This document shows positions 19,792 to 51,013 of a stretch of 64,000 nucleotides of DNA, in pieces. The stretch lies in NCBI GenBank assembly GCA_026391775.1, contig JAPLDK010000011.1, forward strand, positions 77,066 to 141,065, read 5' to 3'. The translations under genes and the position numbers were made by a program. The stretch comes from Bacteroidota bacterium (GTDB taxonomy: Bacteria > Bacteroidota > Bacteroidia > Bacteroidales > FEN-979). The notes under the pieces were generated by a model. It was not told where the DNA came from. It ran no database searches and saw nothing but the letters and a program-made list of their open reading frames with translations. How positions within the stretch are numbered: position 1 is the first letter of the stretch; each line of letters starts with the position of its first letter.

Positions 19792-19809
19792 TTGTTATTT
19801 AATTAACAA
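19792..19809. promoter_or_regulatory. Rex operator between divergent hydrogenase operons
   Basis: TTGTTATTTAATTAACAA has one mismatch to TTGTTAA-N4-TTAACAA. It lies 10 nt upstream of the plus-strand -7 motif TAATTTTG (19820-19827). Confidence 0.65.
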
Positions 19810-20352: not shown

Positions 20353-20373
20353 TTTAACATAAGGAGATTGACA

Positions 20374-21540: not shown

Positions 21541-21553
21541 AGGAACACTAAGC

Positions 21554-26312: not shown

Positions 26313-26322
26313 GGGAAAAATT

Positions 26323-32072: not shown

Positions 32073-32090
32073 TTGTGATTTTATTAACAA
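32073..32090. promoter_or_regulatory. Rex operator upstream of hydrogenase set 2
   Basis: TTGTGATTTTATTAACAA: left half resembles TTGTGAA, right half is a perfect TTAACAA. It lies 47 nt upstream of the -7 motif TAATTTTG (32138-32145). Confidence 0.6.
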
Positions 32091-32221
32091 TGTGAAAAAA
32101 ATAACACCGAAAGCTTGCACAACATTTATAAAGGTTATAATTTTGCAGCCAGAAACTATGAAAAATAGTTTTAAACAGATTAACAAATTAAGCCGGATCA
32201 CTAATTTTCAACATAATACAT

Positions 32222-32611: not shown

Positions 32612-32613
32612 AT

Positions 32614-34074
32614 ATGGCAAGACAAATCAGGATAGCATTACGTAACTGTGGCGTCATAGACCCTGAGCGGATCGAAGATTATATTGCCCGTGACGGTTAT
32701 ATGGCACTTGCCAAAGTTTTGACCGAGCTTTCACCTGAAGCCGTTATTGAGATTATAAAGAAGTCGGGCCTGCGAGGCCGCGGTGGCGGAGGGTTCCCTG
32801 CCGGCATGAAATGGGAGATCACACGGAAAGTTCAGGCCGACCAGAAATATGTAGTTTGCAATGCCGACGAAGGCGACCCGGGTGCATTTATGGACCGTTC
32901 CATTCTCGAAGGTGACCCCCACGCAGTGCTTGAAGCAATGACCATAAACGGTTACTGCACAGGCGCTTCCAAAGGGCTGATCTATATTCGCGCTGAATAC
33001 CCTCTGGCTGTTGAAAGGTTGAAAACCGCTATGAGCCAGTCACGGGAGACGGGGTTACTCGGAAACGATATCCTTGGAACAGGATTTAACTTTGATATTG
33101 ACATCCGATATGGAGCAGGAGCCTTTGTTTGCGGAGAGGAAACCGCCCTGATCCATTCCATGGAGGGACTTCGCGGTGAACCAACCGTAAAACCCCCCTT
33201 CCCTTCGGTTGAAGGTTATCTTAAAAAACCCACTAACGTAAATAATGTTGAAACTTTTGCCAATGTACCGGTCATTATAAATAAAGGATGGGAATGGTTT
33301 TCCTCCATTGGCACTGAGAGATCAAAAGGCACAAAAGTTTTTGCACTTGCAGGAAAAATCAATAATGTAGGACTTGTTGAAGTACCCATGGGAACAACCC
33401 TTCGCGAAGTTATTTATGAAATCGGCGGAGGCATACAGGGAGGAAAGGAATTTAAGGCAGCACAGACTGGCGGACCCTCGGGTGGTTGCCTTACAAAAAA
33501 ACATCTTGATACGCCTATTGATTACGATAACCTGATAGCTGCAGGATCCATGATGGGATCGGGCGGATTGATCGTAATGGACGAGGATGACTGCATGGTT
33601 GCCATAGCCAAGTTTTATCTTGGCTTTACTGTTGAAGAATCCTGCGGAAAATGTTCTCCCTGCCGCATAGGGAACAAGCGTTTGTTCGAACTTCTTGAAA
33701 AGATCACCCAGGGCAACGGCACGATGGAAGATATAGACAAGCTGCGAAACCTGAGTACTGTGATTAAAGACACTTCGCTCTGCGGGCTGGGACAGTCCTC
33801 CCCCAACCCCGTACTCTCAACCATTGAAAATTTCATGGAAGAGTACCATGAGCATGTGAAAGATAAAAAATGCCGCTCCAAAGTGTGCAAATCACTTATG
33901 CAATATCTGGTCGTACCAGAAAAATGCATAGGATGTACCCTTTGTGCACGTAACTGTCCGGTGAACGCCATCAGCGGTGAACGCAAACAGGCCCATCTGA
34001 TCGATCAGGAAAAGTGCATCAAATGCGGCGCCTGCATGGAAAAGTGCAAATTCAACGCTATCATCATCAATTAA
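32614..34074 (+). CDS. hydB: NuoF/HydB-like FMN/NAD(H) subunit with C-terminal 2x[4Fe-4S] domain (set 2)
   Basis: GLRGRGGGGFPAGMKWE, GAGAFVCGEETALIHSMEG, ESCGKCSPCR, CGLGQ, then CIGCTLCARNCP and CIKCGACMEKC. Confidence 0.92.
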   Translation: MARQIRIALRNCGVIDPERIEDYIARDGYMALAKVLTELSPEAVIEIIKKSGLRGRGGGGFPAGMKWEITRKVQADQKYVVCNADEGDPGAFMDRSILEGDPHAVLEAMTINGYCTGASKGLIYIRAEYPLAVERLKTAMSQSRETGLLGNDILGTGFNFDIDIRYGAGAFVCGEETALIHSMEGLRGEPTVKPPFPSVEGYLKKPTNVNNVETFANVPVIINKGWEWFSSIGTERSKGTKVFALAGKINNVGLVEVPMGTTLREVIYEIGGGIQGGKEFKAAQTGGPSGGCLTKKHLDTPIDYDNLIAAGSMMGSGGLIVMDEDDCMVAIAKFYLGFTVEESCGKCSPCRIGNKRLFELLEKITQGNGTMEDIDKLRNLSTVIKDTSLCGLGQSSPNPVLSTIENFMEEYHEHVKDKKCRSKVCKSLMQYLVVPEKCIGCTLCARNCPVNAISGERKQAHLIDQEKCIKCGACMEKCKFNAIIIN

Positions 34075-34089
34075 GGAAAAAGGAACGTT

Positions 34090-35862
34090 ATGAATAGGAT
34101 TAAGCTTATCATTGACGGAAAGACGACAGAGGTTCCTGAAAATACCACGCTTTTAAAGGCAGCCAAGACCGTTGGCATCGATATACCTACTCTCTGCTAC
34201 TTCGAACTGAAGGACATGAACATTGAAAACCGTCCTGGTGGATGCCGCGTTTGTGTGGTTGAAGTCAAGGGAAGACGGAATCTCGCACCAGCCTGCAATA
34301 CAATGGTGGCAGAGGGTATGGAAGTTTACACACATAACATCAGGGTATTGAATGCACGCAGAACCGTTCTGGAGCTCATACTATCAGATCATCCTGCTGA
34401 ATGTCTTACCTGTGCCAAATCGGGAAGCTGTGAGCTCCAGAGCATGGCACAGCAACTTGGCGTGAGGGAGATACCCTACCAGGGTGAGCAGTCGAAGTAC
34501 CGCAAGGATACTTCGCCTGCAATCATCCGGGATGTGGATAAATGTATCATGTGCCGGCGGTGTGAAATGATGTGTAACGACGTTCAGACGGTGGGCGCGC
34601 TGAGCGCCGTCAACAGAGGCTTCATGGCAGTGGTGGCCCCGGCATTCGAAATGAATCTCGAGAAATCTCCCTGCACTTACTGTGGACAATGTGTATCTGT
34701 TTGCCCCACCGGTGCCCTGACCGAAGTAGACCACTCGCGCAACGTAATTAATGCACTCGCAGACCCTACCAAGACTGTTGTTGTTCAGACAGCGCCTGCC
34801 GTCAGAGCTGCTTTAGGAGAAGAATTTGGCCTAGCGCCAGGCACCCTTGTAACGGGTAAGATGGTCGCCGCACTACGACGACTTGGATTTGACTATGTAT
34901 TCGATACTGACTTCGCCGCTGACCTTACGATCATGGAAGAAGGCACTGAACTACTCGACCGTCTTACCCGTTACCTCAAGGGTGACAAGGATGTGAAACT
35001 TCCTATCCTCACCTCCTGTTGCCCCGGCTGGGTCAACTTCTTCGAACATCATTTCCCCGAAATGCGCGATATTCCTTCAACGGCAAAATCGCCCCAGCAG
35101 ATGTTCGGGCCCATTGCCAAAGAATATTTTGCCAAAAAACTCGGAATCGACCGCCGAAATATGATCGTGGTCTCCATTATGCCCTGCCTTGCCAAGAAAT
35201 ACGAATGCCAGCGCGACGAATTCAAGGTGAACGGCGATCCGGATGTGAATTTTTCACTTTCGACACGCGAACTTGCCCATCTTATCAAAGCTTCAAATAT
35301 TGACTTTAATTCACTGTCTGCGGATGACTTTGATAACCCTCTCGGAGAGTCTACCGGCGCCGCCGTTATTTTCGGCGCAACCGGCGGAGTGATCGAGGCT
35401 GCGTGCCGTACAGCATATGAATTGTATACAGGTAAAAAACTGCTAAAAGTTGATTTTACTGAACTTCGTGGCCTTGAAAACGTCAGGAAAGCCACCCTGG
35501 ACTTTGACGGACTTCCTATCAATATTGGTATCGCCCATGGACTTGGAAATGCCCGCAAATTACTTGAAGATATCCGCGATGGCAAGAGCCAGTTCCACGC
35601 CATTGAGATCATGGCGTGCCCCGGCGGATGCATAGGAGGTGGAGGACAGCCCTTCCATCACGGCGATTCGGAAATTATCAAGCAGAGAGCTTCGGCAATT
35701 TACCGCGAAGATGCCGGAAAGCCTATCAGGAAGTCTCATGAAAACCCATTCATACTTGAATTGTATAAAGACTTTTTGGGAAAACCCTGCGGGGAAAAAT
35801 CATACAACCTGCTGCATACTCATTACTTTGATAAGAGTGCAGGGGTGTTTGTGGAAGAATGA
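34090..35862 (+). CDS. hydA: [FeFe] hydrogenase catalytic subunit HydA (set 2), canonical motifs
   Basis: M3 FeS domains plus TSCCPGW, MPCLAKKYE and EIMACPGGCIGGGGQP. Confidence 0.94.
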   Translation: MNRIKLIIDGKTTEVPENTTLLKAAKTVGIDIPTLCYFELKDMNIENRPGGCRVCVVEVKGRRNLAPACNTMVAEGMEVYTHNIRVLNARRTVLELILSDHPAECLTCAKSGSCELQSMAQQLGVREIPYQGEQSKYRKDTSPAIIRDVDKCIMCRRCEMMCNDVQTVGALSAVNRGFMAVVAPAFEMNLEKSPCTYCGQCVSVCPTGALTEVDHSRNVINALADPTKTVVVQTAPAVRAALGEEFGLAPGTLVTGKMVAALRRLGFDYVFDTDFAADLTIMEEGTELLDRLTRYLKGDKDVKLPILTSCCPGWVNFFEHHFPEMRDIPSTAKSPQQMFGPIAKEYFAKKLGIDRRNMIVVSIMPCLAKKYECQRDEFKVNGDPDVNFSLSTRELAHLIKASNIDFNSLSADDFDNPLGESTGAAVIFGATGGVIEAACRTAYELYTGKKLLKVDFTELRGLENVRKATLDFDGLPINIGIAHGLGNARKLLEDIRDGKSQFHAIEIMACPGGCIGGGGQPFHHGDSEIIKQRASAIYREDAGKPIRKSHENPFILELYKDFLGKPCGEKSYNLLHTHYFDKSAGVFVEE

Positions 35863-35934
35863 TAAACAGTTACTAGGAACTGGGTACTAGGCAACTAGTA
35901 AACCCAAAACCCAGAGCCCAGAAACCAGAAAATT

Positions 35935-36414
35935 ATGGCGAAAATAAAATTATCGGAGAAGAAGATCCAGGAGCTGAAAGATGTTTGCAAAACTTTCCAT
36001 AACGATAAGGGCGAACTGATTAACATACTTCATAAGGCTCAGAGTTTGTTCGGTTATCTTCCAGCTGAGCTGCAGGAAGTAATAGCAAAGGAGCTCAATG
36101 TTTCCGTTGCCCATGTTTACGGTGTGGTCACTTTTTATTCTTTCTTCACCATGCAGCCTAAGGGCAAGCATCCTGTTTCTATCTGTCTTGGAACCGCTTG
36201 CTATGTGCGTGGTTCCGAAAAAGTACTCGAGGAATTCAAACGACAATTAAACATACAGGTTGGCCAGACCACTGCCGACGGCAAGTTTTCCCTCAGCTGT
36301 CTCAGGTGTGTTGGCGCTTGTGGACTGGCTCCGGTTGTACTTGTAGGTGAAAAAGTATATGGACGTGTGGCCCCAGATGGCGTATCCGACATCATCGCGG
36401 AATACAATATTTAA
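35935..36414 (+). CDS. hydC: NuoE/HydC-like [2Fe-2S] subunit (set 2)
   Basis: CLGTACYVRGS ... CLRCVGACGLAPVVLV. Confidence 0.9.
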   Translation: MAKIKLSEKKIQELKDVCKTFHNDKGELINILHKAQSLFGYLPAELQEVIAKELNVSVAHVYGVVTFYSFFTMQPKGKHPVSICLGTACYVRGSEKVLEEFKRQLNIQVGQTTADGKFSLSCLRCVGACGLAPVVLVGEKVYGRVAPDGVSDIIAEYNI

Positions 36415-36512: not shown

Positions 36513-37697
36513 TCAGAAAAATTTCATCGAAACTTCTTTCATGAACTTTTCATCGAGAGTCCGGGCAATACGGTGAACAACAGTCCGGCGCAACTCAAGC
36601 TCCATGGGCAGGGTCGGATCCTGGTGGGCCACGTTAATGTTTGTACCAACAATAAAATGGATCTCATCGCTTTCAAGAATAGCCTTTACAATAAGGTCAG
36701 CCGGGCCTTTGCCAAGCTCGTAAGCTGAATTATGCTTTTTAAGCAGTTCACTTACCTTACTCAATGTAAGTATCCCTTCGGTGATCAGCTCAACCCCTTC
36801 CATATGAGACACAGGAGGTAGTTCCGGATCGCTCATCACATTCGTATCAACAATTTCTTTACCCCATTCACGGGCAATCATATCGCCGGTTGTGGCTCCC
36901 GAAATAATCTTCCTGCCTTCAAACTGCTGAAGCAGCCCTGCAAACATTTTGTCGTTGGCAGTATCCACTGGCGGACCGCTGCAGATCATCAGTTTCCTGG
37001 GTTGCCGGTAATAAATAACAGCGCAGGAAATATCATCGCGGGGATGGAAACCATCGTTCAGGTTAGCCCTGTCAATAACTTTAGAAGCAAGCCGGTCAGC
37101 CGAAATAGTGTGTTCCTCCTGGATTGCATCGTTTAACATCATTTCCAGGTTTTCCTGTCCGAAACCTAATGGGTATTTATCAGAACCCAGCCCGGATTGT
37201 ACCACCCCATCGGAACAAAAAATAATACGGTCTTCCTTTAAAGGACTGAAACTTGTAGTCAGTACCTCCTTTCCTGCATGCTTCACCCCTTCCAGAACAA
37301 CTACGTTCCATTGGGGCTCAAACAGTCTGACTCCCCTGAAAAACAAGGTCTTCGGATTCTCGTATTCCAGAACCTTCACATCCCCGTCCACATCAATATC
37401 AGCAATTGTAAAGGTTGAATAGTTCATTTCCTTAACACTGTCGACAGGCAGGGTATTCATTATTGTTGCAGCGATTGACTCCACACTCTTATGCTCCTGA
37501 GTGAGATTAAGGGCAAGTGTGGATGTGAGTGTCGCCAGAATATTAGCTTTTATGCCATGCCCCATACCATCGGAAAGTACAGCAATAATGCGGCCTTCCT
37601 CCGATATCCGTTTAGTATAAAAAACATCTCCGCAAACCCTGGCTTCGCCGTGATTCTTCTGTTTGCATACAACTTCGATATAGAATTTTTCGTCCAT
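36513..37697 (-). CDS. PP2C/SpoIIE-family protein Ser/Thr phosphatase with an uncharacterised C-terminal half
   Basis: CGDVFY ... IIAVLSDGMGHGIKANILA ... FCSDGV ... DDISCAVIYY are SpoIIE-type PP2C motifs. It starts 10 nt downstream of the HydS-like gene. Confidence 0.85.
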   Translation of the reverse strand: MDEKFYIEVVCKQKNHGEARVCGDVFYTKRISEEGRIIAVLSDGMGHGIKANILATLTSTLALNLTQEHKSVESIAATIMNTLPVDSVKEMNYSTFTIADIDVDGDVKVLEYENPKTLFFRGVRLFEPQWNVVVLEGVKHAGKEVLTTSFSPLKEDRIIFCSDGVVQSGLGSDKYPLGFGQENLEMMLNDAIQEEHTISADRLASKVIDRANLNDGFHPRDDISCAVIYYRQPRKLMICSGPPVDTANDKMFAGLLQQFEGRKIISGATTGDMIAREWGKEIVDTNVMSDPELPPVSHMEGVELITEGILTLSKVSELLKKHNSAYELGKGPADLIVKAILESDEIHFIVGTNINVAHQDPTLPMELELRRTVVHRIARTLDEKFMKEVSMKFF

Positions 37698-37706: not shown

Positions 37707-39575
37707 TTACTTTTTATTCTGCGACTGATGGGATTCGATAATGGCATTGAGCATCTGCTCTGTTTTTGCAGCCCCTTCGCCAAGCAGGAAGGCAATCTTC
37801 TGCACCATATCAAAATTCTGGTCTATCACTTCCTTCATGCGTGTGATGATCTGCTCCTTATAGACTTCGGGCATGTACATATCACGGATGATACCCCCGA
37901 CAAACTTTTTGGAACGCAGCGGAAATACCGATACATTCAGGATGCCGCTTCCATACTGTACGTCTTTACGCTCAACACTTTCATCCGAAGAAAGCACAAA
38001 GGAAAATATCTTGTAAAAGTGAATTGGCAGTAAGGACTTAAGATCGGCACCTTCCAGGCCGGGGATTACCTCGTCGACCATAGCAGCTTCTTCTCCCAGG
38101 ATGCGGATAAAAGCTTTATTTGCATGCAGTATCCTGAGGTTTTCGTCAACAATAATAACTCCGGAAACAAGCTGCTGGAGCATGGAAGAAATAAGCCCGG
38201 ATGTTTCTTGCTGGCTTTCCTTCTCATGCTTTGCTTTTTCCTCGGAAATCCTAAGCGCTTCCTGGGTCTTTGCAAGTTTTTCGTTGGTAGTACGAAGAGT
38301 CCTTATATATTCCTGGCGGTTCCTCCCGCTGAAAATATGACACATATCAGTCGTAGCCAGGCCCTGAGCAATGGCAATGGCAAAATCACGACAGTTTGAA
38401 TAACCGCAGGATTCACAGCCAATCTCATTATTTTTCTGATCCTGGCGGTTGATCATTCTGAGTACTTCATCAATTTTTTCTTCGGAAGGCAAAGGGAGAC
38501 GCTGGTCGTCAGCCGAATAAATCCGGTTGAGGTCCAGTCCCGAAAAACCGTCAATATCCCTCTTCCAGGCATCCGGGTCAAGGGTTTTCAGACGTTTATT
38601 GGCATACTCTGTAACGAGTGTATGGCGCAGGAATTTCTCGCCTCCCTGGGAAGTACCTGGCCCCATCAAACATCCGTCATCATAAAAAATATTAAAATGT
38701 CGGCGGATGAGGTCAATGCGGGTATCAAACTCCTTTACCGCGTTCAGCATATTATTGCGGCCCTCGGTTGTGATGATGTTCCCGCTGAGCAGGTGCTCGT
38801 TGATGTCGACGGCCTGCAGGATACCATTGCTTATAGGATATAAAGAGCCCCTATTTCCAAGAGGAGCATCGAATTCAGAGAATTCAAGATGGCTCTCACG
38901 GATGTTGAATTCATTGAAAAGCTGCCTCAACTCAACAAACGTCAAAACCGAATCGATCTTGCCATCTCCCTCAAACCTTAAGGCTTCATCCTTGGCTGCA
39001 ATACAGGGACCAATTGCCACAATTTTAATATCCTGGCCATAACACTGGTGGATTACTTTGGCTGCTGCTACCATGGGTGAAACTAAGGGTGCAAGGTTAC
39101 TGATCAATTCAGGATAATATTTTTCAATAAAAAACACCACGGCCGGGCAATTGGCCATGATATGATATTTACCTTTGAAATCTTCAAGCAACTCCTTATA
39201 TCCCCTGGCGACAAGGTCAACCCCGAACGACACCTCTGTAACATAGGCAAATCCAAGATTTCGGATCATCTGGACAAATTTGCGGTAATCGGTGATGTCG
39301 TGGAATTCACCCGAGATAGCCGGATCACAGATAGCAGCCACTTTTTTCCCTGAAGCGATAAGTTCCCTGGTCTCAGAAATTGAAGACCTGTATGTTATTG
39401 CTGCAGGTGAACAGGCCATGTAACAGCTACCGCAACCAATGCAACGTTCACGTATAATTGAAGGAAATTCCGTATTCACATCAACCTTTATAGCTTTGAC
39501 AGGACATATCCTTACACAGGAGTAACATTTTATGCAGGTTTCGTGATGAATTTCGAATAATGGGGAATCCGTCAT
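37707..39575 (-). CDS. Sensory-type [FeFe] hydrogenase-like protein with C-terminal PAS domain (HydS-like)
   Basis: CIKCYSCVRICP and CIGCGSCYMACS. H-domain-like motifs are MANCPAV, IGPCIAAKDE and DDGCLMGPG. A Cys cluster CESCGYSNC...MC and a PAS-like C-terminus follow. ATG at 39575 preferred over the TTG at 39623. Confidence 0.82.
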   Translation of the reverse strand: MTDSPLFEIHHETCIKCYSCVRICPVKAIKVDVNTEFPSIIRERCIGCGSCYMACSPAAITYRSSISETRELIASGKKVAAICDPAISGEFHDITDYRKFVQMIRNLGFAYVTEVSFGVDLVARGYKELLEDFKGKYHIMANCPAVVFFIEKYYPELISNLAPLVSPMVAAAKVIHQCYGQDIKIVAIGPCIAAKDEALRFEGDGKIDSVLTFVELRQLFNEFNIRESHLEFSEFDAPLGNRGSLYPISNGILQAVDINEHLLSGNIITTEGRNNMLNAVKEFDTRIDLIRRHFNIFYDDGCLMGPGTSQGGEKFLRHTLVTEYANKRLKTLDPDAWKRDIDGFSGLDLNRIYSADDQRLPLPSEEKIDEVLRMINRQDQKNNEIGCESCGYSNCRDFAIAIAQGLATTDMCHIFSGRNRQEYIRTLRTTNEKLAKTQEALRISEEKAKHEKESQQETSGLISSMLQQLVSGVIIVDENLRILHANKAFIRILGEEAAMVDEVIPGLEGADLKSLLPIHFYKIFSFVLSSDESVERKDVQYGSGILNVSVFPLRSKKFVGGIIRDMYMPEVYKEQIITRMKEVIDQNFDMVQKIAFLLGEGAAKTEQMLNAIIESHQSQNKK

Positions 39576-39654
39576 AATGGTCAAAATTACAAATATATCA
39601 GCTCTTTCGACAAGATTCTCCAAATTTTTTCTTCCGAAATACCTAACCCTTTTA

Positions 39655-39672
39655 TTGTTTATTTATTAACAA
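39655..39672. promoter_or_regulatory. Rex operator between the HydS-like gene and hydrogenase set 3
   Basis: TTGTTTATTTATTAACAA has one mismatch to TTGTTAA-N4-TTAACAA. It lies 47 nt upstream of the -7 motif TATTTTTG (39720-39727). Confidence 0.62.
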
Positions 39673-39799
39673 TGATAATTTTTTCACAATAAATATTTTT
39701 ATAATTGAAATTATTACCTTATTTTTGTATATAATTGAAAGAAAGATTTATGGGGATGATAACCATTTAGTGAGGAATTAAAAGCAATATAAATACTGT

Positions 39800-40252
39800 A
39801 TGGATCATATTTTTGAAAAGTACGCCCTGAGGAAACCCGAGAACCTGATCCCTCTTCTCCAGGAACTTCAAAAAGAAAACGGTTATCTTACCGACGAGAT
39901 CGTTGAAAAGGTATCGCTACATTTACATATTCCTACTAATAGGATCTATGGAGTTGCCACTTTTTACGACCAGTTCCGTTTCAGGCAGAGGGGGTTGTAT
40001 CACATTCAGGTTTGCCGGGGGACTTCATGTTATCTATGCAGTTCCGAATCCTATCTGAAAGAAATTGAAAAACTTCTGAAAGTCCAGGCAGGTTCTGTGA
40101 CCAGGGATAAAAGGTTCAGCCTTGAAACAGTAAACTGTATGGGTGGCTGCAGCCAGTCACCGGTCATCAGGATCAACGATACATATTATCACCACTTGAG
40201 TGTGGCCGATCTGTCAGAGGTCCTCCGTATATTTAGAGAAAAAACCGAGTAA
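39800..40252 (+). CDS. NuoE/HydC-like [2Fe-2S] subunit (set 3)
   Basis: VCRGTSCYLCSS ... NCMGGCSQSPVIRIN. Confidence 0.88.
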   Translation: MDHIFEKYALRKPENLIPLLQELQKENGYLTDEIVEKVSLHLHIPTNRIYGVATFYDQFRFRQRGLYHIQVCRGTSCYLCSSESYLKEIEKLLKVQAGSVTRDKRFSLETVNCMGGCSQSPVIRINDTYYHHLSVADLSEVLRIFREKTE

Positions 40253-40253
40253 C

Positions 40254-42203
40254 ATGCCAGCACAAGATTTAACCGACAACAGGGTATTTCTGATCGAGAA
40301 AGTCATTAAGAATTATTCCGGAATATTCGATAAAACGACAACCGACAGGCTGGCAATGCTGAGGCGTGATAAAGTTACACGTCCGGTGATCTATATAGGG
40401 ACAGGGACCTGCGGTATCATATCGGGAGCTAAGTCCACCCTGGGAAAAGTGAGGAATTATCTCTCTGAAAATAATATCATTGCTGATATCATAGAGGTAG
40501 GGTGTAATGGCTTCTGTTCTGCCGAACCCTTGCTTGATATACAGTTGCCCGGCAAGACAAGGTTATCATTCCGGAATGTAACTTGGGACAAAGCCGAGGA
40601 CATTTTGAATTCATCGCTGAACCACACCTTGCTGCCTGATCAGGTCCTTGGGCAGTATCAACAACCAGGACTTGAAGAATGGCCGAATGTGCAATTGCTT
40701 GATCAAATCCCCTGGTTCAGTCTTCAAAGAAGGTGCATACTTAAAAACGCAGGGATTATCTGTCCGGTTTCAATAGAAGACTACATTGTCAGGGGCGGTT
40801 ATAAACCTCTTTACAAGACGGTTTTAAATTACCCGGCCGATAAAATCTGCGAGATTATTGAGCAAAGCGAGTTAAGGGGCCGTGCGGGCGGAGGATTTCC
40901 AACCGGTAAAAAATGGAAGATAGCCCTTGACACTGCAGGTGATCAGAAATATATGATTTGCAATGCAGATGAGAGTGATCCCGGGGCTTTTATGGACAGG
41001 GCAATGATCGAAAGCGACCCTCACCGGGTCCTTGAAGGCATTGCCATCGCCTCATATGCGATCGGTGCGAGCCAGGCAATCATCTATGTCAGGTCAGACT
41101 ATGAAAACTCTCTGAATATTCTTGAGATGGCTATCAGGCAGGCGAAAGACTATGGCCTGTTGGGTGAGAACATCTTTGGAAGCGGGTTTAACCTCTCGGT
41201 AAGCATACGGCAGGGAGCCGGAGCTTTTGTATGCGGTGAGGAAACAGCCTTGGTTTCGAGTCTTGAAGGTCAGAGGGGATTACCGGGATCAAAACCTCCC
41301 TACCCTGCTGAGAAAGGCCTTTGGGGTCAACCAACAGTGATCAATAATGTGGAAACCCTGGCCAATATTCCCGGAATTCTTGAAAACGGTCCGGCATGGT
41401 TCAAAACCCTGGGCACGAAGTCTTCAAAAGGCACCAAATTATTCTCGGTTGCAGGAAAATCTGTCTCGACAGGATTCATCGAAGTACCCATGGGGACAAC
41501 GTTTTCTGCAATTATCAACAATATTGCTGGAGGAGTAAAGGACGGGAAAGCCTTAAAAGCTGTTCAACTTGGTGGACCTTCCGGAGTATGCATTCCTCCG
41601 GCTGATCTTGATACGCCTATTGATTTTGAATCTCTTTCCGAGATAGGGGCTACACTGGGGTTAGGCGGCCTGATCATCCTTGACGAGAAAACATGCATGG
41701 TCAATCTTGCCAGGTATTTCATGAATTTCCTGCAAAATGAGAGTTGCGGAAAATGTATTCCATGCAGGGAAGGCACAAGAATGATGCTGGATATTCTGGA
41801 AGGCATAACAAAGAGGCCGAAGGAGGAAACCACGCATGAGACCCTGGAACGCTTCAAAGGAGTTGTTCAGCTTGAAAGCCTTGCCGAGGTCATCCGTGAC
41901 ACTTCGCTTTGCGGGCTGGGGCAAAATGCGCCTAACCCGGTCCTCAGCTCTTTGAAATGGTTCAGGGAAGAATTTGAAGAACATATTTTCGACCGCCGGT
42001 GTTCGGCAGGTGTCTGCCATGATTTGCGTACGTTTTTTATCGATGTGGAATTTTGCAACGGATGTAATATCTGTCAGAAAAAATGCCCCGAGAACGCAAT
42101 TATAGGTTCTCTTAAACAACCTCATTTCATCATTGAATCCAAGTGTACAGGTTGCGGGATTTGCTTTGATGCCTGTAAATTCAGCGCAATCTATTTTAAA
42201 TAA
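40254..42203 (+). CDS. NuoF/HydB-like subunit with fused N-terminal Trx-like [2Fe-2S] and C-terminal 2x[4Fe-4S] domains (set 3)
   Basis: GTGTCGIISGA...VGCNGFCSAEP, ELRGRAGGGFPTGKKWK, GAGAFVCGEETALVSSLEG, ESCGKCIPCR, CGLGQ, CNGCNICQKKCP, CTGCGICFDAC. The ATG at 40254 follows the upstream stop by 1 nt. Confidence 0.9.
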   Translation: MPAQDLTDNRVFLIEKVIKNYSGIFDKTTTDRLAMLRRDKVTRPVIYIGTGTCGIISGAKSTLGKVRNYLSENNIIADIIEVGCNGFCSAEPLLDIQLPGKTRLSFRNVTWDKAEDILNSSLNHTLLPDQVLGQYQQPGLEEWPNVQLLDQIPWFSLQRRCILKNAGIICPVSIEDYIVRGGYKPLYKTVLNYPADKICEIIEQSELRGRAGGGFPTGKKWKIALDTAGDQKYMICNADESDPGAFMDRAMIESDPHRVLEGIAIASYAIGASQAIIYVRSDYENSLNILEMAIRQAKDYGLLGENIFGSGFNLSVSIRQGAGAFVCGEETALVSSLEGQRGLPGSKPPYPAEKGLWGQPTVINNVETLANIPGILENGPAWFKTLGTKSSKGTKLFSVAGKSVSTGFIEVPMGTTFSAIINNIAGGVKDGKALKAVQLGGPSGVCIPPADLDTPIDFESLSEIGATLGLGGLIILDEKTCMVNLARYFMNFLQNESCGKCIPCREGTRMMLDILEGITKRPKEETTHETLERFKGVVQLESLAEVIRDTSLCGLGQNAPNPVLSSLKWFREEFEEHIFDRRCSAGVCHDLRTFFIDVEFCNGCNICQKKCPENAIIGSLKQPHFIIESKCTGCGICFDACKFSAIYFK

Positions 42204-42211
42204 GGGGAATT

Positions 42212-43924
42212 ATGCTTCTTAATATCGAAATAAACGGTCAGCAGGTCAGTGCCAAACGGGGAGAAACCATACTAACGGTATTGAACCGAATTGGTGTGAA
42301 AGTCCCTACACTCTGTTATCTGAGCAGCCTTTCACCAAGCGGAGCCTGCCGCATGTGCGTTGTTGAAGTTGAGGGCCTGTCCCATCTTGTCCCGGCCTGT
42401 TCCCACCAGGTGGAGGAATGGATGCAGATCCATACTCATTCACCCAGGGTGCTCAAAGCCAGGAAAACCCTTGTTGAACTTCTGCTTGCCAATCATCCTG
42501 ATGACTGCCTTTACTGTGACCGTAACGGTACCTGCGAACTTCAGGGTTTATCGGAGGAACTTCAGGTAAGGGATCGTAAATATATCAGCAGGCATAAACC
42601 GGTCCAGATCGACAAAGCCTGCCCTTCAATCCAGAGGGATCCTGCAAAATGTGTTCTTTGCGGTCGTTGCAGCAGAGTTTGCCGGGAGATCATCGGAGTT
42701 GCTGCCATCGACGCCGTTGGTAGAGGATCGCATACAAGAATCGGGACTTCTTACAACCGGGGTCTTAATTTCAATGCCTGTGTCAAATGCGGGCAATGTA
42801 TCATAGCCTGCCCCACCGGTGCCCTTACTGAAAGAAAGGCACTTCCCATGGTTATAGAAGCCCTGGGGAATCCGGAGCTTTACCCAGTTGTACAGTTTTC
42901 CCCGACTGTTCCTGCCGCCATTGCCGAAGAATTCAGTTTGAAATCCAATAAGGATATCCTCAATCTTCTGCGTTCTGCCCTCAAGAAAATGGGGTTCCGG
43001 CAGAGTTTTGACGTTTCCCTGGCCGCCGACATTAACATTATGGAAGAAGCAGCGATTTTCCTTGAACGCTGGCCCAGGAATAAAATGCTTCCCTTGTTTA
43101 CCAGCTGCTGTCCGGCCTGGGTCAGGTACCTGGAAGTTTTCAGACCTGAATTCCGAGATCATTTATCTCCTGTTAAATCCCCGCAGCAGATCATGGGAAC
43201 GGTAATCAAACAATATATTACAAGCAGTGCCGGCATCAAATCCGATAAAGTATTTGTTGTGTCAGTCATGCCATGTACTGCGAAAAAGGCTGAAGCCGAA
43301 TTCGACAATAACGGGAACAAACCCGTAGATGCGGTCATCACGATCAGGGAGCTGGTGAGGATGATCAGGCTTTTGGGGATCGATTTCAGCAGTTTAGAAC
43401 CCGAGCCTACCGACACAGCTTTCAGCCTGAGCAGTTCAGCAGGAAGATTGTTTGGAATTTCGGGCGGTCATCTTGAAGGGTTGATACGGAGCATTTATTT
43501 CATGAGTACCGGGCAGGATATGAACCCTGCTAAAATTAATGACCTGAGAGGCTTAAAACCCAGGAAAGAAGCCAGGATAAAAATAAACAAACAACCCATA
43601 AATGTTGTTGCTGTGAGCGGTCTGGCAAATGCCATTGCACTTTTAGACGAGATTGAAAACGGCCGCGATGACATTCAGATCGTCGAAGTTATGGCCTGTC
43701 CGAATGGCTGTATCAACGGCGGAGGCCAGAAAATCGGATCTGATGAGAAAAGTCTCAAAGGTAGGATGAAGGCTCTTTACGATGTAGATGAAGAAGAAAT
43801 GGTTAAAATGGCACATAAAAATCCAACCATCACCGACCTTTTCGATAAATTTCTTTCCAAACCAAACAGTACAAGGAACCAGGAGATTTTGCACAAAGAC
43901 CACTCCAAATCATCAGAGGTATGA
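42212..43924 (+). CDS. [FeFe] hydrogenase-type subunit (set 3), divergent second-sphere residues
   Basis: M3 FeS domains (NHPDDCLYCDRNGTCELQ, CVLCGRCSRVC, CVKCGQCIIACP). Motifs are TSCCPAW, MPCTAKKAE and EVMACPNGCINGGGQK. Confidence 0.85.
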   Translation: MLLNIEINGQQVSAKRGETILTVLNRIGVKVPTLCYLSSLSPSGACRMCVVEVEGLSHLVPACSHQVEEWMQIHTHSPRVLKARKTLVELLLANHPDDCLYCDRNGTCELQGLSEELQVRDRKYISRHKPVQIDKACPSIQRDPAKCVLCGRCSRVCREIIGVAAIDAVGRGSHTRIGTSYNRGLNFNACVKCGQCIIACPTGALTERKALPMVIEALGNPELYPVVQFSPTVPAAIAEEFSLKSNKDILNLLRSALKKMGFRQSFDVSLAADINIMEEAAIFLERWPRNKMLPLFTSCCPAWVRYLEVFRPEFRDHLSPVKSPQQIMGTVIKQYITSSAGIKSDKVFVVSVMPCTAKKAEAEFDNNGNKPVDAVITIRELVRMIRLLGIDFSSLEPEPTDTAFSLSSSAGRLFGISGGHLEGLIRSIYFMSTGQDMNPAKINDLRGLKPRKEARIKINKQPINVVAVSGLANAIALLDEIENGRDDIQIVEVMACPNGCINGGGQKIGSDEKSLKGRMKALYDVDEEEMVKMAHKNPTITDLFDKFLSKPNSTRNQEILHKDHSKSSEV

Positions 43925-45900
43925 GCCACGCCTATCACAGGCAACTCGTGTTTACGGTAAAGGATAAATGCCGTGTATGCTATACTTGTGTTCGCGAATG
44001 TCCTGTAAAGGCTATTAAAATCATAAGGACACAGGCAGAAGTGATCAATGAACGATGTATTGGCTGCGGGAACTGTGTTAAGGTTTGCAGCCAGGGAGCA
44101 AAGTATCCGCTGCGTTCAATTGATGAAGTGAATGAGCTTCTGAAATCCGAAAAGAAAATAGCTGCATGCATTGCCCCCAGTTTCCCTGCAGAATTCACCG
44201 AGGTCCCCGATCACCGTATGTTTGTAGGAATGATCCGGGCTTTGGGATTCGATTATGTAGCGGAGGTTGCTTTTGGGGCCGACATGGTGGCCAGGGAATA
44301 CGAAAACAGGATCAAGAGGTCGGAAGGCGATGGTCAGATAAGCTCAGACTGCCCGGCTATTGTCTATTTCATCAGGCATTACCATCCGGAACTTGTGGGC
44401 AACCTTGCCCCTGTCGCTTCACCGATGCTGGCCATGACCCGGATCATGAAAAAGAAATACGGGGAAGATCTGAAGGTGGTCTTTATCGGCCCCTGTTTTG
44501 CAAAGAAAGCCGAGACGGATGAAATTGATGAAGTACTCACTTTCAGAGAGCTAAGAGAGATGTTCCAGGAAAAAGGAATCATCTGGGAAAATTCCAGTCC
44601 GTCAGTTTTTGATCCCCCGGTAAGCGGGAAAGGCGCTATCTTCCCGATCAGCCGCGGCCTGTACTTCACTGCTAATTCCACTGAAACCATTCCGGAAGAA
44701 CAGGTGGTGGTCGCTGAGGGCAGGGTAAATTTCAAGGAAGCCGTCAGGGAATTTGAGGAAGGCCTTATCCGGAATAAACATCTGATGCTGCTCTGTTGCG
44801 AAGGATGCATTATGGGCCCCGGCACTTCTCCCGGGGGCAAACGATTTGCAAGGAGTGCCGCTGTAGGAGAATATGTAAGTAAAAAACTGGCCACTGTCGA
44901 TAAAGAGCAATGGGAAAATCAGGTTGAGGAATTCAGCGGCCTCGATTTTTCCCAGCAATTCAGTCCGGAAGACCGCCGCTTCGAGATCCCGGCCGAAGAT
45001 AAAATTCTTGAAGCACTGCATGCTATGGGTAAGTTCAAACCCGGGGATCACCTCAATTGCGGAACCTGCGGATATGATACTTGTGTGGAACACGCGATTG
45101 CGATCGTAAAAGATCTTGCGGAAACGGAAATGTGTCTGCCCTATACGATTGAGAAACTGCATGACTCGATCAACAACCTGAATGTTTCCAACGACAAGCT
45201 TGCAAAGGCCAAGCAGGCCCTGAAGCAGTCGGAGAAGCTAGCCCATATGGGGCAGCTTTCGGCAGGGATTGCACATGAGCTTAACAACCCCCTGGGGGTC
45301 ATCACGATGTATTCGAATATCCTTATCGATGAATCTCCTGAAAACGATCCCATGCGGGATGACCTGAAACTTATTGCCGAACAGGCCGACCGCTGTAAGA
45401 AGATCGTAAGCGGCCTGTTAAATTTTGCACGAAAGAACCAGGTCACTCTGAGCGAAACTGATATTGTTAAATTCATGAGGCATAGTATTGATTCCATAAT
45501 TAAACCTTCAAACATTGAGATTGCATTCGAACCAAAAATAGCCGATCCTCAAGCCCGGCTTGACATCGATCAGATGATGCAGGTGCTTACGAACCTGGAA
45601 AAAAATGCTGTTGAAGCGATGCCTGACGGCGGAACGCTTACAGTAGGTGTTGAAGGGGACCAGAAAGAGATACGGTTTATTATTGCCGATACCGGAACAG
45701 GGATATCCAAAGAATATATGGATAAAATTTTTACTCCGTTTTTTACAACCAAGGAAATGGGAAAGGGCACGGGACTTGGACTGGCTCTTATCTACGGGAT
45801 TGTCAAGATGCACAAAGGGAAAATACATGTTGAATCGAATGATGATGTTACAAAAGGGAACACAGGAACGACGTTTACGATAACCTTACCAAGAACATGA
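43921..45900 (+). CDS. HydS-like sensory [FeFe] hydrogenase domain fused to a histidine kinase
   Basis: CRVCYTCVRECP and CIGCGNCVKVCS. H-domain-like motifs are SSDCPAIV, IGPCFAKKAE and LLCCEGCIMGPG. Cys cluster CGTCGYDTC...MC. Then H-box SAGIAHELNNPLG, N-box LEKNAVEAM, DTGTGI and GKGTGLGLA. ATGA overlap with the upstream hydrogenase gene. Confidence 0.85.
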   Translation: MSHAYHRQLVFTVKDKCRVCYTCVRECPVKAIKIIRTQAEVINERCIGCGNCVKVCSQGAKYPLRSIDEVNELLKSEKKIAACIAPSFPAEFTEVPDHRMFVGMIRALGFDYVAEVAFGADMVAREYENRIKRSEGDGQISSDCPAIVYFIRHYHPELVGNLAPVASPMLAMTRIMKKKYGEDLKVVFIGPCFAKKAETDEIDEVLTFRELREMFQEKGIIWENSSPSVFDPPVSGKGAIFPISRGLYFTANSTETIPEEQVVVAEGRVNFKEAVREFEEGLIRNKHLMLLCCEGCIMGPGTSPGGKRFARSAAVGEYVSKKLATVDKEQWENQVEEFSGLDFSQQFSPEDRRFEIPAEDKILEALHAMGKFKPGDHLNCGTCGYDTCVEHAIAIVKDLAETEMCLPYTIEKLHDSINNLNVSNDKLAKAKQALKQSEKLAHMGQLSAGIAHELNNPLGVITMYSNILIDESPENDPMRDDLKLIAEQADRCKKIVSGLLNFARKNQVTLSETDIVKFMRHSIDSIIKPSNIEIAFEPKIADPQARLDIDQMMQVLTNLEKNAVEAMPDGGTLTVGVEGDQKEIRFIIADTGTGISKEYMDKIFTPFFTTKEMGKGTGLGLALIYGIVKMHKGKIHVESNDDVTKGNTGTTFTITLPRT

Positions 45901-46301
45901 GCACTAAAAACAAACTGATCCTGATCGTTGATGATGACCAGGATTACCTTTACCAGATGAAAACCAGGGTCGAATCCTTTGGATTTCAGACACTTCTTGC
46001 CGAGAGCCAGAAAGAGGCTGAAGAACTGATTGAAAAAACAAAACCGGATCTTGCCATTGTTGACCTGATGATGGAAAACGAGGATAGCGGCTTTATCCTG
46101 TGTTATAAAATGAAGAAAAAATACCCGGAAGTCCCTATCATTATTGCAACGGGTGTTGCAGCTGAGACCGGGATATCCTTTGACATTAACGATGAGAACA
46201 ACCGGAAATGGATCAAGGCAGATCGTTTCCTTGAGAAAGGAATCCGGAAAGAGAAACTTAAAGAGGAAATAGATAAACTATTGATCAAAATTAACAGCTG
46301 A
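45897..46301 (+). CDS. Single-domain response regulator (receiver only)
   Basis: LILIVDDDQD, AIVDLMM, IIIATG, LEKG. No output domain. ATGA overlap with the kinase gene. Confidence 0.88.
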   Translation: MSTKNKLILIVDDDQDYLYQMKTRVESFGFQTLLAESQKEAEELIEKTKPDLAIVDLMMENEDSGFILCYKMKKKYPEVPIIIATGVAAETGISFDINDENNRKWIKADRFLEKGIRKEKLKEEIDKLLIKINS

Positions 46302-46333
46302 TGTTGAAATACAGGTTTTTTCCCTTATTTTTG

Positions 46334-46351
46334 ATGTGATTATATTAACAT
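46334..46351. promoter_or_regulatory. Weak Rex-box-like inverted repeat overlapping the start of the receiver-kinase gene
   Basis: ATGTGATTATATTAACAT resembles the set-2 box (TTGTGAT-N4-TTAACAA), but both outermost positions are mismatched. Confidence 0.3.
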
Positions 46352-47483
46352 GTCTACTCTAAAGATTCTTGTAATAGATGATGAACCAGGCATCAGGAGC
46401 GGGATAAGCCGTATCCTGCGAAACTTCAGAGTGGACTACCCGTTCATGGAAGAAGCGTTCGATTTTGAGGTTCACGAAGCTTCAACCGGTGAAGCCGGGA
46501 TTGAACTTATCGAAAAAGACAAACCCGACATCCTGCTGCTTGACAATAAACTGCCTGGAATTCAGGGGATTGAGGTGCTGGAATACATCCGTAAAAAACA
46601 GATGAACATCATTGTGGTGATGATCACTTCCTATGCCTCGCTTGAACTTGCAGTGAAGGCCACGAGTGACGGAGCATACGACTTTATCCCCAAACCCTTC
46701 ACTCCTCAGGAACTTAAGTCTTCGATCGAAAATATCACTAAACGGGTATTCCTGAAGAAAATGACCAACAAACTTCAGGAGACTGGCAAACAGATCAGGT
46801 TTCAGTTTCTTTCTGTTCTTTCACATGAGCTCAAGGCGCCTCTTAACTCCATAGAAGGGTATTTGCAAATGATCAAGGAAAGACAGGCAGGTCCACAACT
46901 TGAGAGTTATGATTACATGGTCGACCGCATGCTGGAAAGAATTAAAGGGATGAGGACGCTGATTCTTGATTTACTGGATCTGACAAAAGCTGCCTCAGGA
47001 AAGGGGAAACGGGATATCAGGGAACTTAATCTAGTGGACATTGCTAACACTGCAATCGATACAATGAGGCCGTATTCAATTCAGAAAGATGTAAAGCTGA
47101 ACCTTCACGGGAATGATACGGTCAAAATCATGGCAGATAGCGAGGAGATGGAAATCATCTTTAACAACCTGATCAGCAATGCCATTAAATACAATAAGGA
47201 AGGCGGCACTGTAGATTGTACCATAAGTGAAAACGGAAATTGTGTTGAAATACTTGTGGAAGATTCAGGTATTGGTATGAACCCTGAGGATATTACCAGG
47301 ATTTTCGACGATTTTGTAAGGATTAAAACCGAAAAAACCAGAAATATAACCGGCAGCGGGCTCGGGCTCGCCATTGTAAAAAAGCTAATCGACACTTATA
47401 TGGGGAAAATTGAGGTTACCAGCCAGCCGGATAAGGGCAGTAAATTTAAAGTCAAACTTCCAATTGATAAACCATGTTCATAA
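46350..47483 (+). CDS. Receiver-histidine kinase hybrid (REC-HisKA-HATPase)
   Basis: ILVIDDEPGI, ILLLDNKLPG, MITSY, PKPF, then H-box LSVLSHELKAPLN, N-box LISNAIKYN, DSGIGM and GSGLGLA. Confidence 0.9.
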   Translation: MSTLKILVIDDEPGIRSGISRILRNFRVDYPFMEEAFDFEVHEASTGEAGIELIEKDKPDILLLDNKLPGIQGIEVLEYIRKKQMNIIVVMITSYASLELAVKATSDGAYDFIPKPFTPQELKSSIENITKRVFLKKMTNKLQETGKQIRFQFLSVLSHELKAPLNSIEGYLQMIKERQAGPQLESYDYMVDRMLERIKGMRTLILDLLDLTKAASGKGKRDIRELNLVDIANTAIDTMRPYSIQKDVKLNLHGNDTVKIMADSEEMEIIFNNLISNAIKYNKEGGTVDCTISENGNCVEILVEDSGIGMNPEDITRIFDDFVRIKTEKTRNITGSGLGLAIVKKLIDTYMGKIEVTSQPDKGSKFKVKLPIDKPCS

Positions 47484-48115
47484 AAAACCTACCTCACAAG
47501 ACGGTCGAACGTCTCAGCCAGTATCGTCGTGCTCTTCTGATGATATTATCAAAAGAGAAGACCCATGTATTTTCTCATGAGATTGCCCAGATGCTGCATA
47601 TCACACCCGTTCAGGTCAGACGTGACCTGATGCTTATTGGCTATTCAGGGAACCTGAGAAAAGGCTATGACATCAAGGAGCTGATCGAACTTATCGGAAA
47701 AATTATAGATTCAGAGCGTGGTCAACGGGTTGCCGTAGTCGGATTGGGCAATCTGGGGAAAGCGTTCATCAGCTATTTTAAAGGGAAGCGTTCCAAGCTT
47801 AGTATGATCGCTGCTTTTGACATCAATCCTGAAAAAATCAACAGGGTTTTTGACGGTGTTCCCTGTTACCATATCAACCAACTAACCGATATCATAAAAC
47901 AAAATAATATCTCCATCGGCATCATTACTGTACCCTCGGAACAGGCCCCTGAGATCGCCGAATCTCTTGTTTTATCGGGGATCAAAGGAATACTAAATTA
48001 CACTCCCAAGCCTCTCAATGTCCCGGCTTATGTATACCTCGAAGAATATGACATGATAACATCCCTGGAAAAAGTCGCATTCTTCGCCAAGAAAAACGAC
48101 GAACGATTTAAGTAA
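47474..48115 (+). CDS. rex: Redox-sensing transcriptional repressor Rex
   Basis: RLSQYRRAL, S.E.A......PVQVRRDL...G..GKGY-type winged helix, Rossmann VVGLGNLGKA, and GIKGILNYTPKPLNVP. Collinear with B. subtilis Rex by eye. It overlaps the upstream gene by 10 nt. Confidence 0.9.
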   Translation: MFIKNLPHKTVERLSQYRRALLMILSKEKTHVFSHEIAQMLHITPVQVRRDLMLIGYSGNLRKGYDIKELIELIGKIIDSERGQRVAVVGLGNLGKAFISYFKGKRSKLSMIAAFDINPEKINRVFDGVPCYHINQLTDIIKQNNISIGIITVPSEQAPEIAESLVLSGIKGILNYTPKPLNVPAYVYLEEYDMITSLEKVAFFAKKNDERFK

Positions 48116-50982: not shown

Positions 50983-51013
50983 AGGCCGTCTCTTTGAGCG
51001 GCCTCTTTTTTTT
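50983..51013 (+). terminator. Rho-independent terminator after rplS
   Basis: AGGCCG ... CGGCCT stem followed by a T-run (CTTTTTTTT). Confidence 0.75.

Follow-up and report, generated by a model that had tools for sequence, protein, structure and literature searches.

A putative H2-sensing [FeFe]-hydrogenase histidine kinase, two output-less signalling partners and Rex form a conserved cassette on HydABC-type hydrogenase operons

How is a hydrogenase operon regulated when it carries its own putative H2-sensing kinase, two further signalling proteins with no DNA-binding domain, and the gene of a redox-responsive repressor? This question is raised by a 64,000-nucleotide (nt) stretch of the Bacteroidota assembly GCA_026391775.1 (contig JAPLDK010000011.1, positions 77,066-141,065, forward strand), which we refer to as the window and in whose numbering coordinates are given. 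Within it, the genes of a HydABC-type [FeFe] hydrogenase (set 3) run directly into four regulatory genes encoding HydS-HK, a putative sensory hydrogenase domain on a histidine kinase; REC1, a lone receiver; REC-HK, a hybrid kinase; and the repressor Rex. An initial annotation had read these genes as a multi-step phosphorelay devoid of DNA-binding output, in which H2 and NADH/NAD+ signals might converge. With near certainty as regards its architecture and conservation, this locus carries one instance of a regulatory cassette that is widespread, is vertically conserved and accompanies an electron-bifurcating-type HydABC [FeFe] hydrogenase. The seven genes of the cassette are the following (lengths in amino acids, aa).

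39800..40252, + strand: HydC/NuoE-like [2Fe-2S] subunit of the set-3 HydABC-type hydrogenase (Pfam 2Fe-2S_thioredx, E 1.7e-45)
40254..42203, + strand: HydB/NuoF-like flavoprotein subunit of set 3 (Pfam Complex1_51K, NADH_4Fe-4S and Fer4)
42212..43924, + strand: HydA, catalytic [FeFe] hydrogenase of set 3 (canonical TSCCP, MPCxxKK and MACPxGC motifs)
43921..45900, + strand: HydS-HK, putative H2-sensing [FeFe]-hydrogenase domain with HisKA and HATPase, 659 aa (Pfam)
45897..46301, + strand: REC1, single-domain receiver, 134 aa (Pfam Response_reg alone)
46350..47483, + strand: REC-HK, REC-HisKA-HATPase hybrid kinase, 377 aa (Pfam Response_reg, HisKA and HATPase_c)
47474..48115, + strand: Rex, NADH/NAD+-sensing repressor, 213 aa (NCBIfam and Pfam)

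Inspection of the gene junctions supported the placement of HydS-HK within a HydABC-type operon, translationally coupled to it and followed by an output-less receiver and REC-HK, with rex linked. Read directly from the sequence, an ATGA joins the stop of HydA to the start of HydS-HK (43921-43924), a second ATGA joins the stop of HydS-HK to the start of REC1 (45897-45900), and REC-HK overlaps rex by 10 nt (47474-47483), all as previously annotated. None of the three signalling proteins contains a helix-turn-helix, Hpt or other output domain at the Pfam threshold, which agrees with the earlier claim. The mechanical open reading frame (ORF) of HydB begins with a GTG at 40200 and overlaps hydC by 53 nt; the real start is probably the ATG at 40254, because the protein is then 649 aa, the length of its orthologues. 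HydA scored 652 bits against the NCBIfam model FeFe_hydrog_A6, which lies under the model cut-off. Downstream of rex are ribF, an MBL-fold gene, trmD and rplS, and the only convincing + strand terminator lies behind rplS (50983-51004). A sigma-70 promoter scan returned 29 promoter-like sites versus 24 expected, with a consensus that differs from Bacteroidota promoters.

The initial annotation had called for a check of whether this gene block is conserved in related genomes, and the outcome was strongly positive. A word-indexed search recovered >7000 homologues of HydS-HK, with a single architecture throughout the top 120 clusters, which are named as Bacteroidota or Bacteroidales metagenome-assembled genome (MAG) proteins, while the best 150 matches of an exhaustive search included ~45 full-length representatives after clustering at 50%. 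When one genome per species was scanned with the motif NC[GR][ATS]CGYx[TS]C, at least 544 species-level genomes were found to encode a HydS-HK relative. For synteny, we sampled 80 loci from at least 15 phyla, called their ORFs and classified these by phmmer against the window proteins; the denominators of 73, 62 and 57 used throughout are the loci with enough flank. The sample covers Bacteroidota, Hydrogenedentota, Planctomycetota, Myxococcota, Desulfobacterota, Calditrichota, Acidobacteriota, Verrucomicrobiota, Fibrobacterota, Elusimicrobiota, Thermoleophilia, Melainabacteria, Spirochaetota, Anaerolineae and Ignavibacteria, and the closest relative (89% identity) is from an uncultured Bacteroidales MAG. 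In 69/73 loci the sensor kinase is succeeded by REC-HK, in 62/73 a single receiver adjoins HydS-HK, mostly between the kinases and sometimes just upstream, and in 60/73 both partners are present. HydA lies immediately upstream of HydS-HK in 53 of 62 loci, and rex is in the operon in 37 of 57, in Bacteroidota as a downstream gene (21 loci) and in other phyla as the opening gene (16 loci). The genes are tightly packed, with median gaps of 14, 28, 2 and 5 nt between successive genes across the related loci and a gap of ≤10 nt from REC-HK to rex in 22/29 loci. The genes of the cassette are hydC, hydB, hydA, hydS-HK, REC, REC-HK and rex, the last of which can stand at either end of the operon, and the repetition of this gene order in dozens of phylogenetically distant genomes places the HydS-HK/REC1/REC-HK/rex arrangement beyond chance.

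The sensor itself is best described as a putative HydS-type (group C-like) sensory [FeFe]-hydrogenase domain on a class-I histidine kinase. Pfam and the sequence both confirm the direct fusion of a HydS-type domain to HisKA/HATPase, together with all of the motifs quoted previously. Fer4 motifs occupy residues 13-60, Fe_hyd_lg_C residues 78-300 (E 4e-47) and the PF04060 FeS domain residues 378-407, followed by HisKA (443-506, 53.5 bits, cut-off 26.9) and HATPase_c (548-658, 87.3 bits, cut-off 26.4). The hydrogenase motifs are SSDCPAIV at 141, GPCFAKKAE at 190 and LLCCEGCIMGPG at 290, and CGTCGYDTC...C at 380-405 is exactly Cx2Cx4Cx16C. We aligned the H-domain with the window's three catalytic HydA paralogues, and C144, C192, C293 and C296 aligned with the catalytic H-cluster ligands C300, C355, C499 and C503. 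L1 reads SSDCP rather than the catalytic TSCCP, such that the proton-relay C299 is replaced by D143 while the ligand Cys300 is retained; L2 (GPCFAKKAE) replaces M353 by G190; and L3 (LLCCEGC) replaces M497 by L291 with both ligand cysteines retained.

A family alignment of 34 full-length relatives, 29-75% identical to the window protein, follows the same pattern. Of the 34 relatives, 33-34 retain the four ligand cysteines, all 34 retain C380, C383, C388 and C405 of the Cx2Cx4Cx16C motif, and 32 retain His452, while the ATP-binding N562, D590, G592, G594 and G618-L621 (N, G1 and G2 boxes) are invariant and K195 (K358) and E198 are conserved across phyla. At the C299-equivalent position 143 the residue varies (T, P, A, D, S, F, H and others); Gly occupies position 190 (M353) in 30/34 and Leu position 291 (M497) in 25/34. 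The same altered C299/M353/M497 pattern has been published for sensory enzymes such as TmHydS (PMC10055695, PMC8163306), and this match points to a sensory-type active site in HydS-HK; the Asp found at its C299 position is the sole substitution reported to retain proton transfer in prototypical enzymes (PMC10055695). An AlphaFold2 model (mean predicted local distance difference test score 88) has one unbroken helix from 406 to 471, which starts just past Cys405, bears His452 and runs into the DHp domain. By Foldseek, the first ~430 residues match HydA of HydABC complexes and CpI, while the C-terminal part matches the cytoplasmic domain of ZraS, the closest solved structure for the kinase; no solved structure of a sensory HydS was found, the best PDB matches being catalytic HydA, CpI and ZraS. 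HydDB (2016) defined putative sensory group C subtypes and labelled C1 'histidine kinase-linked' (PMC5037454), and kinase-bearing relatives beside A3 enzymes are typed as C3 in two other papers (PMC11406978, PMC9324843).

The two partners are also well conserved over the 63 triads in which their residues were counted. REC1 keeps D56, T85 and K114 in 62-63 of 63 orthologues, and REC-HK keeps D65, T93, K115, H159, N277 and the G1/G2 boxes in all 63. With phospho-acceptor and catalytic residues conserved, HydS-HK and REC-HK appear to be genuine enzymes and the triad to be selected as a unit; the 42-57% identity of REC1 and REC-HK from other phyla to the window proteins marks them as dedicated orthologues rather than generic receivers. 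REC1 belongs to a distinct subfamily with a near-invariant D-[LV]-M-M behind the phospho-Asp and a divergent alpha4-beta5 region, and its PDB matches end near residue 90. Extra copies of the REC1 subfamily occur in several loci (L013, L045, L067, L068, L070 and L074). A phosphorelay in the strict His-Asp-His-Asp sense is not supported, as no Hpt domain is present in the three signalling proteins (the sole hint, PF10090 at 18.7 bits against a cut-off of 22.9, lies over an ATPase domain) and the second His is within a complete kinase with its boxes conserved in 63/63 triads. A two-kinase cascade or a branched two-component network describes it better.

The remaining member of the cassette, Rex, scored 200.1 bits against NCBIfam NF003995 (cut-off 126), matches Put_DNA-bind_N and CoA_binding in Pfam and contains a GLGNLG Rossmann motif. 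Its gene lies in a hydrogenase island, as the window holds one [NiFe] cluster, an SDR-fused [FeFe] hydrogenase and three HydABC-type sets. We searched for operators as TTGTTAA-N4-TTAACAA with ≤2 mismatches and, in a second scan, with a K/M-tolerant score over 14 positions. The former found five palindromes in the window versus 0.45 expected, and the latter seven operator-like sites versus 1.4 expected, six of which are directly upstream of the [NiFe] operon, set 1 and the SDR-hydrogenase, set 2, or set 3 and a second putative sensor, HydS-PAS. The principal sites are as follows.

39655-39672 and 39672-39689: tandem Rex-like operators TTGTTTATTTATTAACAA and ATGATAATTTTTTCACAA, 17-nt offset, in the HydS-PAS/set-3 divergent intergenic region
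32073-32090: Rex-like box ~130 nt upstream of the set-2 operon (palindrome scan)
32169-32186: weaker second Rex-like box of set 2 (operator scans)
19792-19809: Rex-like box between the SDR-fused hydrogenase (- strand) and the set-1 operon (+ strand) (palindrome scan)
7921-7938: perfect Rex-like palindrome (14/14, 0 mismatches) upstream of the Hdr/Mvh-type [NiFe] operon

Compared with the Rex consensus, the tandem boxes agree at 13/14 and 12/14 positions, respectively, and the box of the [NiFe] operon ends 5 nt ahead of its annotated start. Among 41 related operons with a definable start, a site scoring ≥12/14 within 300 nt of the first gene precedes 27, where ~0.3 would be expected at a background of 0.021 per kb, and tandem boxes with the 17-nt offset recur in related genomes. 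Where rex is the first gene, a box sits 30-50 nt ahead of it, which suggests that rex is autoregulated, and boxes remain ahead of four or five of the 8 Bacteroidota operons that lack rex. Rex has been found by electrophoretic mobility shift assay to repress [FeFe] and [NiFe] hydrogenase operons and rex itself in Caldicellulosiruptor bescii (PMC6391272), and the hfsABCD operon, which contains a sensor, has a predicted Rex site upstream (PMC5886521). We consider it highly likely that Rex controls the operon. The proposed convergence of H2 and NADH signals stands in part, as the two signals would indeed meet at this locus. However, since Rex operators precede every hydrogenase unit and persist in Rex-less Bacteroidota operons, the meeting is better placed at the promoter than in a contact between the relay and Rex. 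The relay genes also persist where rex is absent, and neither phosphotransfer to Rex nor its binding by the relay is indicated.

Taken together, the picture that we favor, with somewhat better than even confidence, is that Rex serves as the NADH-responsive repressor of the operon, whereas the sensor kinase drives a two-kinase cascade with a target outside of the cassette. Rex would bind single or tandem operators ahead of the operon and of the other hydrogenase units of the island, repress them at low NADH/NAD+, release them when NADH/NAD+ rises and, because its gene lies in the operon, also regulate itself; we infer this step from the operator enrichment and published Rex biology. HydS-HK would bind an H-cluster in a site with sensory-type substitutions, and H2 occupancy or reduction of the H-cluster would be passed through the C-terminal cluster domain and the helix to the DHp domain (His452), thereby shifting the balance of autokinase and phosphatase activity. 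Phosphoryl groups would then pass to the N-terminal receiver of REC-HK, which would gate the second, intact kinase, and also to REC1, which could be a terminal effector by protein contact or a phosphate sink. The output of the cascade would be a protein contact of REC1 or an unlinked regulator, and the cascade would report that H2 is high, which is information that Rex alone cannot give. We think that H2 is probably the signal of HydS-HK, while the proposed direction of phosphotransfer strikes us as an even call.

Several observations weigh against this picture. In TamHydS, a group D enzyme, the homologous cluster at the C terminus did not become reduced under 1 atm H2 (PMC13104023), and the signal in HydS-HK is for this reason more likely to be conformational than a redox flip at that cluster. 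Our search of the available literature returned no experimental work on any kinase-fused HydS, and we infer the H2 responsiveness, H-cluster insertion and kinase activity of HydS-HK from its sequence. Sequence does not show which way phosphoryl groups travel between the two kinases and the two receivers. A specificity-residue and covariation test of kinase-receiver pairing over the 63 triads gave no signal because the specificity positions are nearly invariant: DHp alpha1 hardly varies in either kinase, nor does alpha1 in the receiver of REC-HK, and only alpha1 of REC1 varies. None of hydE, hydF or hydG is within the window; 14 of the 41 operons, as well as most Rex-less loci outside of Bacteroidota, have no Rex box; and 11/73 loci are without REC1, which therefore cannot be the only output.

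Among the alternatives for the output, the cascade could terminate at a DNA-binding response regulator of a conventional kind (e.g. NtrC-, NarL- or OmpR-type) whose gene lies elsewhere in the genome, and the cassette proteins would then be just the early steps of an ordinary transcriptional two-component pathway; we regard this reading, which is compatible with the favored picture, as less likely than not. The kinase core of HydS-HK is most like ZraS, AtoS and NtrB-type kinases, which pair with NtrC-family regulators; the 11 loci that keep REC-HK without REC1 imply a partner for REC-HK outside of the cassette there; and DNA-binding regulators do occur near some loci, such as a divergent NtrC-type regulator in L048 and the OmpR-type regulator of the window (26188-27021). 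The latter follows its own kinase, however, and in none of the phyla sampled does the cassette have a consistently linked DNA-binding regulator. Another candidate for the output, a NarL-type regulator that lies upstream of the Rex-less Bacteroidota operons, was discarded because it follows a Cache-PAS-HisKA_3 kinase of its own. It seems quite unlikely that HydS-HK, REC and REC-HK are instead a self-contained, non-transcriptional H2-signalling module in which REC1 acts upon a protein of the same operon; such an action could reset the NADH threshold or DNA affinity of Rex, or could switch HydABC between H2 production and uptake. If true, many anaerobic phyla would combine H2 partial pressure and NADH/NAD+ at the post-translational level. 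The specific version in which the relay acts directly on Rex, e.g. by phosphorylated REC1 binding Rex and altering its DNA binding or NADH sensitivity, such that H2 and NADH signals would be combined in a single protein complex, we view with strong doubt. Its appeal derives from the tight translational coupling of rex to REC-HK noted above, the presence of rex in nearly two thirds of the operons, the divergent alpha4-beta5 face of REC1, which is compatible with an unusual protein partner, and the finding that identity to the window protein in Rex correlates with that in the signalling proteins at Spearman 0.86-0.89, more closely than does identity in HydA. Yet the relay is intact in the 20/57 loci without rex in the operon, rex is at the far upstream end, apart from REC and REC-HK, in 16 loci, autoregulation through the upstream Rex boxes alone explains the linkage, Rex passes the curated canonical model with nothing unusual seen, and the identity correlation is confounded by common phylogeny.

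The input of the cascade can also be read differently. HydS-HK might be a stoichiometric extra subunit of HydABC ('BfuT') that reports ferredoxin/NADH redox load rather than dissolved H2, or the cascade might regulate the enzyme post-translationally, either of which we judge unlikely. The overlap of the HydA stop with the HydS-HK start and the adjacency of HydA in most loci speak for such a subunit, PAS- or kinase-bearing group C proteins are treated as the T subunit of BfuABC in a study of Hydrogenedentota (PMC11406978), and the C-terminal cluster of TamHydS is reduced by strong reductants only and not by H2 (PMC13104023). A pure electron sensor would nevertheless have no need of the four conserved H-cluster ligands, isolated TmHydS and TamHydS do react with H2 (PMC8163306, PMC10055695), and the cassette is without an adjacent HydA in 9/62 loci. 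We give almost no credence to a degenerate pseudo-enzyme lacking the [2Fe] subcluster, whose kinase would be set by FeS-cluster integrity in response to O2, iron or redox stress. The Hydrogenedentota study did not find canonical P1-P3 motifs in its group C1 proteins (PMC11406978), and the neighboring HydS-PAS has Asp in place of ligand C499; against this, the four ligand cysteines, K195 and E198 of HydS-HK are conserved across phyla, and the same kind of non-canonical motifs is found in TmHydS, whose H-cluster is spectroscopically normal (PMC10055695).

The rest of the island contains the following features.

7097-7828: Crp/Fnr regulator
7943-16036: Hdr/Mvh-type [NiFe] cluster
16052-19366, - strand: SDR-fused [FeFe] hydrogenase
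19885-23368: HydABC-type set 1
24486-27021: classical kinase / OmpR-type regulator pair
32222-36414: HydABC-type set 2
36513-37697, - strand: PP2C/SpoIIE-type phosphatase, 3' of HydS-PAS (Pfam SpoIIE, E 3.6e-15)
37707-39623, - strand: HydS-PAS, second putative sensor, group C type (Pfam Fe_hyd_lg_C, FeS and PAS_8)
39800-43924: HydABC-type set 3

The pair of HydS-PAS and PP2C, which was absent from the initial annotation, is divergent from set 3 and shares its Rex-box intergenic region. The phosphatase is syntenic in 15/57 related loci, every one of them in Bacteroidota. HydS-PAS has an Asp where the H-cluster ligand C499 sits (FYDDGC); its nearest orthologues have D or N at this position and more distant ones Cys (FFCxGC). 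HydS-PAS may accordingly hold an altered H-cluster or bind none. The SDR-fused hydrogenase (1104 aa) has an unusual architecture, as an N-terminal NAD-dependent epimerase/SDR domain (residues 9-234) precedes a complete group-A-type [FeFe] hydrogenase with 2Fe-2S, NuoG-like, Fer4, H-domain and small-subunit domains; it shares a Rex-box intergenic region with set 1. The HydA of set 1 (21554-23368) has TSCSPGW rather than TSCCPxW as its L1, which places Ser at the position of the [4Fe-4S]H ligand Cys300 and keeps the proton-relay Cys, and set 2 opens with a separate gene (32222-32611) for a 129-aa protein that resembles the N-terminal, thioredoxin-like domain of HydB, which in this set is encoded on its own. 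In one Rex-less Bacteroidales locus (L013, 13692-17744), hydG, hydF and hydE stand directly behind REC-HK, where the window has rex-ribF.

Among the 'sensory' [FeFe] hydrogenases, whose physiological role is unsettled, TmHydS and TamHydS are the only ones to have been characterized, in each case as an isolated enzyme, and none has had its signalling output traced. Of the read-outs available, that of the kinase-fused form is the simplest, namely autophosphorylation with versus without H2, and any tractable host could be a model because the dedicated partners and the Rex-controlled promoter are found in at least 15 phyla. The question bears upon how fermenters of anoxic sediments, digesters and guts divide electrons between H2 production and other sinks.

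Among known systems, Leptospira LvrA/LvrB and Caulobacter DivJ/PleC-DivK-DivL are multi-kinase networks with output-less receivers. The window cassette resembles them in its output-less REC-HisKA-HATPase protein of ~377 aa and a lone receiver that probably acts by protein contact, unlike them in having a hydrogenase domain as its input, and the comparison is only a lead. The NCBIfam model for LvrB gives REC-HK a partial, sub-threshold match (109 bits versus a cut-off of 500). Close orthologues fill the REC-HK homologue list. The sensor resembles the putative sensory group C (M2f) proteins Thermotoga maritima HydS, Ruminococcus albus HydS and T. saccharolyticum HfsB, with which HydS-HK shares two N-terminal 4Fe-4S motifs, an H-domain with the four Cys ligands kept and C299/M353/M497 altered (PMC8163306, PMC10055695), a C-terminal Cx2Cx4Cx16C cluster and a gene beside a group A (HydABC) hydrogenase. 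However, M2f, i.e. group C as usually defined, has a PAS domain behind the cluster, whereas HydS-HK has no Pfam match to PAS and its cluster domain is joined by one helix to HisKA/HATPase; its partners are receivers instead of Ser/Thr kinase or PP2C modules, and its C299 position is Asp. Regarding Rex, the regulons of Caldicellulosiruptor, Thermoanaerobacterium and Thermotogales similarly feature an 18-bp TTGTKAA-N4-TTMACAA palindrome upstream of [FeFe] and [NiFe] operons, self-regulation of rex, as proposed here, and a Rex site ahead of an operon with a sensory hydrogenase (PMC6391272, PMC5886521). Here, in contrast, rex is inside the hydrogenase-sensor operon, the host is of the Bacteroidota type and the operators frequently come in pairs at a 17-nt offset. 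Co-regulation by Rex and HydS was also proposed for Ruminococcus albus, as summarized elsewhere (PMC10084766).

A functional analogy exists with the [NiFe] systems HoxBC-HoxJ-HoxA and HupUV-HupT-HupR, in which, as summarized in two papers (PMC5707799, PMC5665086), H2 is sensed by a hydrogenase of low activity, which controls a histidine kinase and through it the expression of hydrogenase. HydS-HK is not itself such a regulatory hydrogenase (HoxBCJA / HupUVTR), as it is an [FeFe]-type domain fused to its kinase: the metal centers are unrelated, sensor and kinase are separate proteins joined by a PAS-like domain in the [NiFe] systems, and these have a linked NtrC-type regulator as output, whereas no DNA-binding receiver is linked here. 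The nearest counterparts are found in Elusimicrobia lineage V, Hydrogenedentota and Ca. Lernaella. Elusimicrobia lineage V has a group C hydrogenase-kinase ATPase fusion beside a trimeric group A enzyme with Rex nearby, in an arrangement related to that of Ignavibacterium and Caldithrix (bioRxiv 10.1101/765248), PAS- or kinase-bearing group C3 proteins of Hydrogenedentota have been termed the 'T subunit' (BfuT) of BfuABC (PMC11406978), and Ca. Lernaella has the same kinase-HydS fusion (PMC9324843). The fusion, its place beside a trimeric A3-type hydrogenase and the proximity of Rex are thus common to these systems and the window, and the relatives that we recovered from those phyla are 44-53% identical with the same gene order (L040, L054, L066, L078 and L084). 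The novelty implied by the initial annotation was in this respect overstated. What distinguishes the window copy is its Bacteroidales-like character, the location of rex downstream within a ribF-trmD-rplS string, and the HydS-PAS and PP2C genes alongside, while a conserved REC and REC-HK pair and Rex operators are not described for these systems in the portions of the reports at hand. The window locus is therefore an ordinary Bacteroidales-type member of a recognized family rather than a unique one, to which the present analysis adds the lack of an Hpt domain or linked output, the phylum-wide conservation of REC and REC-HK, and the Rex operators.

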